64,000 nt of DNA from Escherichia coli (GTDB lineage Bacteria; Pseudomonadota; Gammaproteobacteria; Enterobacterales; Enterobacteriaceae), in the NCBI RefSeq assembly GCF_030384885.1, contig NZ_CP128613.1; one strand, given 5' to 3'. Shown in pieces: positions 5,501 to 6,679 of this stretch. The notes beneath the pieces were generated by a model that was not told the origin of the DNA, searched no databases, and worked only from the letters and a program-made list of their open reading frames with translations. The translations under genes were made by a program, and so were the position numbers. The stretch's first letter is position 1; every line of letters starts with the position of its first letter.

Positions 5501-6679
5501 ATGACTGCTGTAAGCCAAACCGAAACACGATCTTCTGCCAATTTTTCGCTTTTCCGCATCGCTTTTGCGGTTTTTCTCACCTACATGACCGTAGGGTTAC
5601 CATTGCCGGTTATCCCGCTGTTTGTTCATCATGAGCTGGGCTATGGCAACACCATGGTCGGGATTGCCGTCGGCATTCAGTTTTTGGCTACGGTACTGAC
5701 GCGTGGCTATGCCGGACGACTGGCCGATCAATATGGTGCAAAACGTTCGGCGCTTCAGGGGATGTTAGCTTGTGGTCTGGCAGGGGGCGCACTGCTGTTG
5801 GCGGCGATTTTGCCCGTCTCCGCACCGTTCAAATTTACTCTGTTGGTCGTCGGACGTTTGATTCTTGGCTTTGGTGAAAGCCAGTTACTGACGGGCGCTC
5901 TGACCTGGGGATTGGGCATCGTTGGACCAAAACATTCCGGCAAAGTGATGTCATGGAACGGAATGGCGATTTACGGTGCCCTCGCTGTTGGTGCGCCGCT
6001 TGGCCTGTTGATTCATAGCCATTACGGTTTTGCTGCCCTGGCGCTCACCACAATGGCATTACCCATACTGGCGTGGGCCTGTAACGGCACAGTGCGCAAA
6101 GTACCGGCCCTGGCGGGAGAACGTCCATCGCTGTGGAGCGTTGTCGGGCTTATCTGGAAACCAGGGTTAGGTCTGGCGCTACAAGGTGTTGGTTTTGCGG
6201 TTATCGGAACTTTCGTTTCGCTCTACTTTGCCAGCAAAGGATGGGCGATGGCGGGCTTTACTCTTACCGCGTTTGGCGGGGCATTTGTCGTGATGCGCGT
6301 AATGTTTGGCTGGATGCCGGACCGTTTTGGCGGCGTGAAAGTGGCGATTGTTTCTCTGCTTGTAGAAACAGTGGGCTTGTTGCTGCTCTGGCAGGCGCCA
6401 GGTGCGTGGGTCGCATTAGCGGGCGCGGCCTTAACCGGAGCTGGATGTTCGCTTATCTTTCCAGCGCTGGGCGTGGAGGTGGTTAAACGTGTACCGTCAC
6501 AAGTTCGTGGCACCGCACTGGGCGGATACGCCGCGTTTCAGGATATCGCCCTCGGCGTCTCCGGGCCGCTGGCGGGAATGCTGGCGACCACGTTTGGTTA
6601 CTCATCGGTATTTCTTGCCGGGGCGATCTCTGCGGTGCTGGGAATTATTGTCACGATACTGTCGTTTCGTCGGGGTTAA
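5501..6679 (+). CDS. yfcJ: MFS-type transporter YfcJ
   Basis: 392-aa highly hydrophobic ORF of MFS type; synteny. Confidence 0.9.

Follow-up and report, generated by a model that had tools for sequence, protein, structure and literature searches.

How do two convergent genes end their transcripts when their stop codons are interlocked and no DNA is left between them, and does such an arrangement carry any function of its own? This question is raised by the junction of yfcJ and flk in a stretch of 64,000 nucleotides (nt) from Escherichia coli (contig NZ_CP128613.1 of assembly GCF_030384885.1; the whole stretch is called the window below). The overlap of these genes is already annotated and catalogued, and its class has been well described. 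The data presented here indicate that it is probably an ordinary compact tail-to-tail junction of functionally unrelated genes, without any sign of a special function. What they add is that orthologous junctions display either the 4-nt overlap, with all four permitted tetramers, in some genera or spacers with hairpins or repetitive extragenic palindromic (REP) elements in others, and that the search for terminators embedded in the partner genes gave a negative result.

The interlocked stop codons of yfcJ and flk

On the + strand, yfcJ (5501-6679) encodes a transporter of 392 amino acids from the major facilitator superfamily (MFS) and terminates at a TAA codon located at 6677-6679. On the - strand, flk (6676-7671) encodes a protein of 331 amino acids and its TAA stop codon is the reverse complement of 6676-6678 (TTA). 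Both genes are delimited in this way in the list of open reading frames (ORFs) and among the RefSeq coding sequences (CDSs). The + strand reads TCGGGGTTAACGAACC from 6670 to 6685, and the yfcJ frame ends there with CGG GGT TAA. The two CDSs overlap by 4 nt, the tetramer TTAA (6676-6679) containing the stop codons of both strands, which share 2 nt (the central TA, 6677-6678). The same 4-nt overlap is found in the RefSeq annotation of strain 2013C-4282, of MG1655 (flk, 2437950-2438945; yfcJ, 2438942-2440120), of a K-12-type strain and of the two junction variants that diverge most among those sampled. The window differs from strain 2013C-4282 (NZ_CP027579.1, 102845-166844) by 3 single-nucleotide polymorphisms over 64 kb, none of them close to the junction.

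Both reading frames are real genes and the C-termini of their products are typical of their families. YfcJ matches the NCBIfam model NF009048 over residues 1-392 of 392 (702 bits for a cut-off of 364) as well as Pfam MFS_1 (124 bits), and Flk matches the NCBIfam equivalog NF007987 over residues 2-330 of 331 (507 bits for a cut-off of 353). The last ~18 codons of flk (about 6679-6735) encode the C-terminal membrane anchor of Flk. Carried by opposite strands, with a 4-nt 3' overlap, a permitted tetramer and two genuine frames, the pair belongs to the class of 4-nt convergent stop-stop overlaps.

The initial annotation had proposed that the two stop codons overlap, that no terminator intervenes between the genes and that their transcripts must overlap. 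The first proposal is borne out by the sequence, the ORFs and RefSeq, and the second by the geometry, which leaves zero intergenic DNA and hence no place for a dedicated intrinsic terminator at yfcJ/flk. Concerning the third, any mRNA that includes its own stop codon covers part of the stop codon of the partner, because the two CDSs overlap by 4 nt. This agrees with published RNA-seq data, since flk-yfcJ is one of the 165 convergent pairs of MG1655 whose transcripts overlap in half or more of the 58 transcriptomes analysed (PMC12288877). The outcome put forward as a refutation, i.e. each transcript ending short of the stop codon of its partner, is impossible for a translatable full-length mRNA. 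The absence of an intervening terminator still leaves room for terminators embedded in the CDS of the partner.

Conservation of the junction in Enterobacteriaceae

A 36-nt probe centred on the junction (ungapped, 0-2 mismatches) matches 5,423 of the 5,426 complete E. coli genomes. Loci from 80 species of Enterobacteriaceae were also fetched with YfcJ as a query, and both stop codons were placed by tblastn followed by frame extension. The overlap is exactly 4 nt (noted -4) in 27 of these loci. They come from E. coli, Escherichia albertii, Escherichia whittamii and other Escherichia lineages, from Salmonella enterica subsp. arizonae and subsp. diarizonae, from many Citrobacter species, from Intestinirhabdus and Pluralibacter, and from some unnamed Enterobacteriaceae. 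A spacer of 26-123 nt separates the genes in 30 loci, belonging to genera that include Enterobacter, Klebsiella and Buttiauxella, and a spacer of 4 nt was found in a single one. Another gene lies between yfcJ and flk in eight loci (gap of 714-2286 nt), and flk was not detected within 2.5 kb of yfcJ in the other 14.

All four permitted tetramers are used by the -4 loci (TTAA in 14, TTAG in 6, CTAA in 5 and CTAG in 2). The variation is confined to positions 1 and 4, the shared TA being invariant. The TGA stop codon, which is common in spacer-bearing loci, never occurs at -4 junctions because their geometry excludes it. Whether a spacer is present or not, YfcJ and Flk end at the same aligned residue (Flk ending with W-L-V-X), and the stop codon of yfcJ occupies the same position of the locus in both states. 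As the ends of both proteins are unchanged, the -4 and spacer states differ by the spacer as a unit, cleanly gained or lost, and not by the loss of a stop codon followed by a 3' extension. In a neighbour-joining tree of YfcJ, the -4 junctions form two clusters that flank the spacer-carrying Enterobacter group, and the outgroups also have spacers. On this single-protein tree, a loss of the spacer followed by re-insertion of a REP element and two independent losses require two steps each. The overlap is conserved beyond chance, but the class to which it belongs is not unusual.

Almost all orthologous yfcJ-flk spacers (29/31) harbor a strong GC-rich hairpin, with folding energies from -17.5 to -59 kcal/mol. 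Their palindromes are of several unrelated kinds: (i) simple palindromes of 10-13 bp in Buttiauxella (GCCACCC-N4-6-GGGTGGC) and Klebsiella; (ii) stems made of CCCCTCTCC and GGAGAGGGG; (iii) pairs of the REP or BIME (bacterial interspersed mosaic element) type, GCCGGGTGGCGG...CCTTACCCGGCCTAC, in Enterobacter, Lelliottia and Leclercia. Examples are provided by loci L024 (3680-3769), L037 and L042 from Enterobacter and by loci L065-L067 and L075 from Buttiauxella. The presence of unrelated kinds of palindromes in orthologous spacers suggests that elements were inserted or replaced here more than once.

The junction also varies within one named species, Citrobacter amalonaticus, as two of its genomes differ. 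In strain S646 (L057, 3677-3900), a hairpin, GCCCGTCT...AGACGGGC, comes after yfcJ and precedes different DNA, flk not being detected within 2.5 kb. The other genome (L059) has a -4 junction with the tetramer CTAG.

The strain from which the window originates looks like a divergent lineage of Escherichia recorded as E. coli. Positions 1-10500 are ~95% identical to K-12 over 8.7 kb, with an evenly spread divergence. YfcJ and Flk are 99% identical to proteins of 'Escherichia sp. MOD1-EC7003', and only 7 of the 5,426 E. coli genomes share at least 99% identity with positions 5400-7800.

Search for terminators embedded in the partner genes

The 3' extension of the yfcJ mRNA contains, inside the flk CDS, an 11-bp hairpin (6734-6763, + strand) made of the stem GGACGCGUUGC/GCAACGUGUCC and a loop of 8 nt. 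This hairpin lacks a U-tract, its stem being followed by AUCAUCG. Its folding energy is -12.4 kcal/mol in a local segment of 46 nt and -22.5 kcal/mol for 6725-6775, with a fold z-score of -1.8. It is identical in K-12 and was found nowhere else than in K-12 and in the E. coli lineage represented by the window. Other Escherichia species, Salmonella and Citrobacter do not conserve it: the pair count gave 52% of paired cells vs 50-55% for five of six slid controls. Likewise, the consensus structure computed by RNAalifold for the -4 clade reaches only -3.1 kcal/mol downstream of the yfcJ stop codon and -0.8 kcal/mol downstream of the flk stop codon, i.e. essentially no structure. A conserved embedded terminator was rejected on the basis of these pair counts and of the RNAalifold results on either strand.

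A scan with a terminator consensus reported a weak terminator-like site at 6727-6753 (+ strand), consisting of a 7-bp stem, CAGCGCG-GGA-CGCGTTG (6727-6743), followed by CCATATTTTG. The T-run begins 5 nt past the stem, and this stem and the 11-bp hairpin are mutually exclusive. Terminator-like sites are not enriched in the region (6 vs 4.2 +/- 2.0 in shuffled sequences) and, in the direction of flk transcription, antisense to yfcJ, the scan found none before 5432. The only hairpins within 100 nt of the junction have either no U-tract or a displaced one, so that none of them qualifies as a bidirectional intrinsic terminator. The junction gave no match with Rfam, whose sole match in the window is the nuoG RNA. 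A promoter-like match at 6741-6768 (+ strand) was also discarded: it is a single 9-of-12 match, below the expectation from shuffled sequences.

A canonical bidirectional intrinsic terminator located after fabB (5308-5337, both strands) provided an internal positive control. It comprises an A-tract (5305-5313), a 7-bp GC stem (5314-5331) and a T-tract (5332-5336), and it folds at -20.2 and -20.5 kcal/mol on the two strands (z-scores of -5.9 and -4.8). The consensus scan missed it because its T-run was absorbed into the stem. The z-scores of the positive controls from the window range from -3.9 to -5.9. Among the four other spaced convergent junctions of the window, three carry hairpins or REP-like elements: the yfcL/mnmC spacer (REP-like, z-score of -4.3), the yfcD/yfcC spacer (A-tract, stem and T-tract, -4.0) and the yfbS/yfbR spacer (REP-like, -3.9). 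A REP-like palindrome is also present in the fabB-yfcJ spacer (about 5243-5280).

How the two transcripts may end

The base composition of the extensions suggests where termination could occur. The untranslated 3' extension of the flk mRNA, antisense to yfcJ (6076-6675, - strand), is C-rich and G-poor: its C/G ratio never falls below 1.0 in any 78-nt window and rises up to 2.3 at +300 to +440. Rho favours RNA of such a composition, and this extension is a candidate zone for the loading of Rho and for termination. The extension of the yfcJ mRNA, antisense to flk (6680-7279, + strand), has a C/G ratio of about 1 that exceeds 1.4 only at +320 to +460. The data of Adams et al. 2021 contain neither a curated Term-seq 3' end nor a Rho region within 2,438,000-2,439,799 of MG1655 on either strand. 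The lack of curated ends in this dataset is consistent with diffuse ends of low abundance.

Adams et al. 2021 reported a Rho termination region at the other end of yfcJ, with a best coordinate at 2440043(-) of MG1655 and a Rho score of 5.8. By coordinate mapping, this position corresponds to 5578 in the window, 77 nt into yfcJ, i.e. to the last base of an element made of a hairpin, CCGCA...TGCGG, followed by TTTTTCTC (5554-5578, + strand; codons 18-26 of yfcJ; -7.1 kcal/mol). The coverage was 236 reads upstream and 15 downstream without bicyclomycin (BCM), and 266 and 98, respectively, with BCM; as the interval used for the upstream count comprises the 3' end of fabB, these reads possibly reflect readthrough from fabB and not yfcJ mRNA. 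This hairpin may be a site of premature termination that limits the transcription of yfcJ. The motif (4-5 of 5 pairs and a T-rich tail) is kept in 47 of the 80 Enterobacteriaceae loci; it encodes a conserved peptide of 10 residues, so that coding constraint may account for its conservation. The low downstream coverage points to little transcription across yfcJ in lysogeny broth (LB), and head-on encounters of RNA polymerases at the junction should therefore be rare.

The junction can be viewed as follows. The C-terminal length of each protein is under purifying selection, and the shared TA cannot change without the loss of both stop codons. This double constraint and the selection on protein length are enough to explain the stability of the junction, positions 1 and 4 being free to drift among the four tetramers; no selection for the overlap itself needs to be invoked. 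Past each stop codon, RNA polymerase would run on antisense to the partner gene and produce RNA that is not translated. These untranslated extensions would most probably be ended by Rho at positionally diffuse sites, which is clearer for the C-rich and G-poor extension of flk. The terminator located after fabB would act as a final backstop for flk-direction readthrough across yfcJ. On the yfcJ side, the ends might be trimmed back to the 6734-6763 hairpin in the lineage of the window and in K-12. The two mRNAs would thus carry complementary 3' tails, tens to hundreds of nt long, as at most convergent junctions of E. coli, probably with no regulatory consequence.

Published surveys provide a frame for this model. 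Overlapping 3' ends were found for 276 of 370 convergent operons of E. coli, with a mean overlap of 286 nt (PMC4161252). As transcript overlap is thus the norm at convergent junctions of this species, including those with spacers, that of yfcJ and flk is not distinctive. At the level of CDSs, E. coli was credited with 58 convergent overlaps, the modal length being that of the 4-nt stop-stop overlap, and an intrinsic terminator was predicted for 23 of the 116 genes involved (PMC2174442).

Alternative explanations

One objection would be that the overlap is false, one of the two frames being wrongly extended or the overlap being due to chance, as long overlaps are often mispredictions in prokaryotic annotations according to the account given in PMC2478687. 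This concern does not fit the yfcJ/flk case: stop codons are unambiguous, which starts are not, both proteins match curated family models up to their C-terminal end, and both ends recur in the 27 species with a -4 junction as well as, residue for residue, in spacer-bearing species. An annotation artefact has a negligible probability and can be considered as ruled out by the full-length profile matches and the conserved ends. Another alternative is that the yfcJ mRNA of E. coli ends at an embedded intrinsic terminator, either the 6727-6743 stem with its T-run or the 6734-6763 stem, which would reduce the overlap of the transcripts to about 50-85 nt. The scan does report the first of these sites, the 11-bp stem does form and is identical in K-12, and ~20% of the genes with convergent overlaps in E. 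coli have an intrinsic terminator predicted inside their partner (PMC2174442). Nevertheless, the 11-bp stem lacks a U-tract and the T-run lies 5 nt away from the 7-bp stem, the number of sites does not exceed the shuffle level and the z-score of -1.8 is weak. Moreover, other Escherichia species, Salmonella and Citrobacter do not have the structure, Adams et al. 2021 list no Term-seq 3' end at the site, and there is nothing comparable in the flk direction. Such a terminator is therefore unlikely.

Several points weigh against an ordinary junction with transcripts ended by Rho. The yfcJ extension is not notably C-rich, and both Rho dependence and tail length are inferred. The authors of ExcludonFinder regard pairs such as flk-yfcJ as potentially regulatory and found that, as a class, excludon pairs show a higher synteny than other neighboring pairs (PMC12288877). 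Furthermore, the -4 state spans several genera, a pattern also expected if the overlap itself were selected. These last points, together with the listing of flk-yfcJ among the convergent pairs with overlapping transcripts and with the conservation of adjacency and of the -4 register across Escherichia, Salmonella and Citrobacter, would fit a functional convergent excludon, in which flk and yfcJ would be mutually exclusive through head-on collision of RNA polymerases and/or cleavage of their complementary 3' tails by RNase III. However, overlapping CDSs satisfy the criterion of ExcludonFinder whenever both genes are expressed, so that the listing is not evidence of regulation. The names of both genes are missing from the 10 supplementary tables of a study based on the capture of double-stranded RNA by p19, which low expression could explain. 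The overlap is dispensable, since 30 relatives have a spacer with a hairpin or REP element, 8 have an inserted gene and 14 have no flk within 2.5 kb. Collisions should be rare, as the coverage in LB is low (15 reads) in the 800 nt of yfcJ located downstream of the 5' Rho region. Finally, a checkpoint of flagellar secretion and an MFS transporter are not known to be functionally connected: Flk is a tail-anchored inhibitor of the premature secretion of late substrates by the flagellar export apparatus (PMC13344023), and YfcJ has been linked to arabinose efflux and to the production of active bo3 oxidase. A functional excludon thus appears quite improbable, and it is more doubtful still, to the point of being hardly credible, that the interlocked stop codons are maintained by the mutual exclusivity of flk and yfcJ through head-on transcription and duplex formation. 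If this were true, the checkpoint of secretion specificity exerted by Flk would be coupled to YfcJ, a transporter needed for bo3 oxidase activity, and the lineages with an inserted hairpin or REP element would have uncoupled flk from yfcJ.

Comparison with known systems

The geometry of the yfcJ/flk junction is the same as that of the 4-nt stop-stop overlaps with CTAA, TTAA, CTAG or TTAG described by Lillo & Krakauer 2007 (PMC2174442), from which it does not differ in kind. What goes beyond the description of this class is that the orthologues of a single pair use all four tetramers and that sister genera display a spacer-bearing state. The convergent excludons of MG1655 (PMC12288877) share with this junction the 3' overlap between neighbors carried by opposite strands, flk-yfcJ itself being listed. 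The traits that define excludons are mutually exclusive expression and processing by RNase III, whereas yfcJ/flk is likened to them by its transcript overlap.

Bidirectional terminators located at convergent genes (Wang et al. 2022, bioRxiv 10.1101/2022.10.23.513370; Ju et al. 2019, as cited there) have the same convergent arrangement, with head-on RNA polymerases if both genes are active. As described in these accounts, sites of programmed collision need a stem-loop between the gene boundaries, whereas yfcJ/flk has neither the space nor the succession of an A-tract, a stem and a U-tract. Elements of this type are present in relatives such as Buttiauxella and, in the window, at 5308-5337 and 26976-26997. 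The convergent units dnaQ-rnh and ilvA-ilvY of E. coli likewise overlap at their 3' ends (references 19 and 20 of PMC4161252). These pairs are reported to have been characterized experimentally.

Implications

As a textbook case of genome compaction at a convergent junction, the overlap probably has little biological weight. It would have practical consequences for genetic constructs. A deletion or insertion touching 6676-6679 in one gene would alter the stop codon of the other, and an altered flk stop codon would extend Flk beyond its membrane anchor at the C-terminus. Transcription of a cassette from inside yfcJ or flk would also run antisense into the partner. Because of the shared stop codons and of this antisense readthrough, the phenotypes of yfcJ and flk knock-outs deserve to be checked for effects on the partner. 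Keio-type designs keep the last codons. To our knowledge, there is no experimental characterization of yfcJ/flk comparable to those of dnaQ-rnh and ilvA-ilvY. The -4 junctions of Escherichia, Salmonella and Citrobacter and the hairpin or REP spacers of Enterobacter, Klebsiella and Buttiauxella could offer a natural contrast for studying the role of intergenic terminators in expression.

Other overlaps and features of the window

The initial annotation had also listed nine same-strand overlaps as indicating translational coupling. All nine are real according to the sequence and to RefSeq, and all are on the + strand. Three are 1-nt overlaps of the TAATG type, between the stop codon of mepA and the start codon of yfcA (124), between those of yfcA and epmC (933) and between those of usg and truA (9985). 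Five are 4-nt overlaps, with GTGA for hisQ/hisM (20372-20375) and ATGA for nuoE/nuoF (44050-44053), nuoG/nuoH (48163-48166), nuoJ/nuoK (50260-50263) and nuoK/nuoL (50559-50562). Termination-reinitiation coupling is documented in general for -1 and -4 overlaps, as outlined in PMC10666635, and these eight junctions (TAATG, ATGA or GTGA) fit this pattern and may be coupled. The ninth, folC/dedD (13937-13947), falls outside the classic pattern: it is an 11-nt overlap extending from a GTG start codon to a TAA stop codon, with GAGGAG upstream.

A second convergent overlap of CDSs, absent from the initial annotation, is located at 56478-56483 (6 nt, TTATAA), between a gene of the + strand (55767-56483) and a gene of the - strand (56478-57053). 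The former is yfbN-like, with about 80% nucleotide identity to yfbN from K-12, and the latter is a rare hypothetical gene. Neither protein has a Pfam or NCBIfam match above threshold, and no hairpin was found at their junction. Only 13 of the 5,426 complete genomes of E. coli contain 80% or more of positions 55700-57100.

The gap of ~920 nt between alaA and lrhA (38046-38964) has no listed feature, and the RefSeq table skips the locus tag C6996_RS00740. The nuoF-nuoG spacer harbors the Rfam nuoG RNA motif RF01748 (45390-45432, + strand), detected with a score of 50.3 bits for a gathering score of 33.

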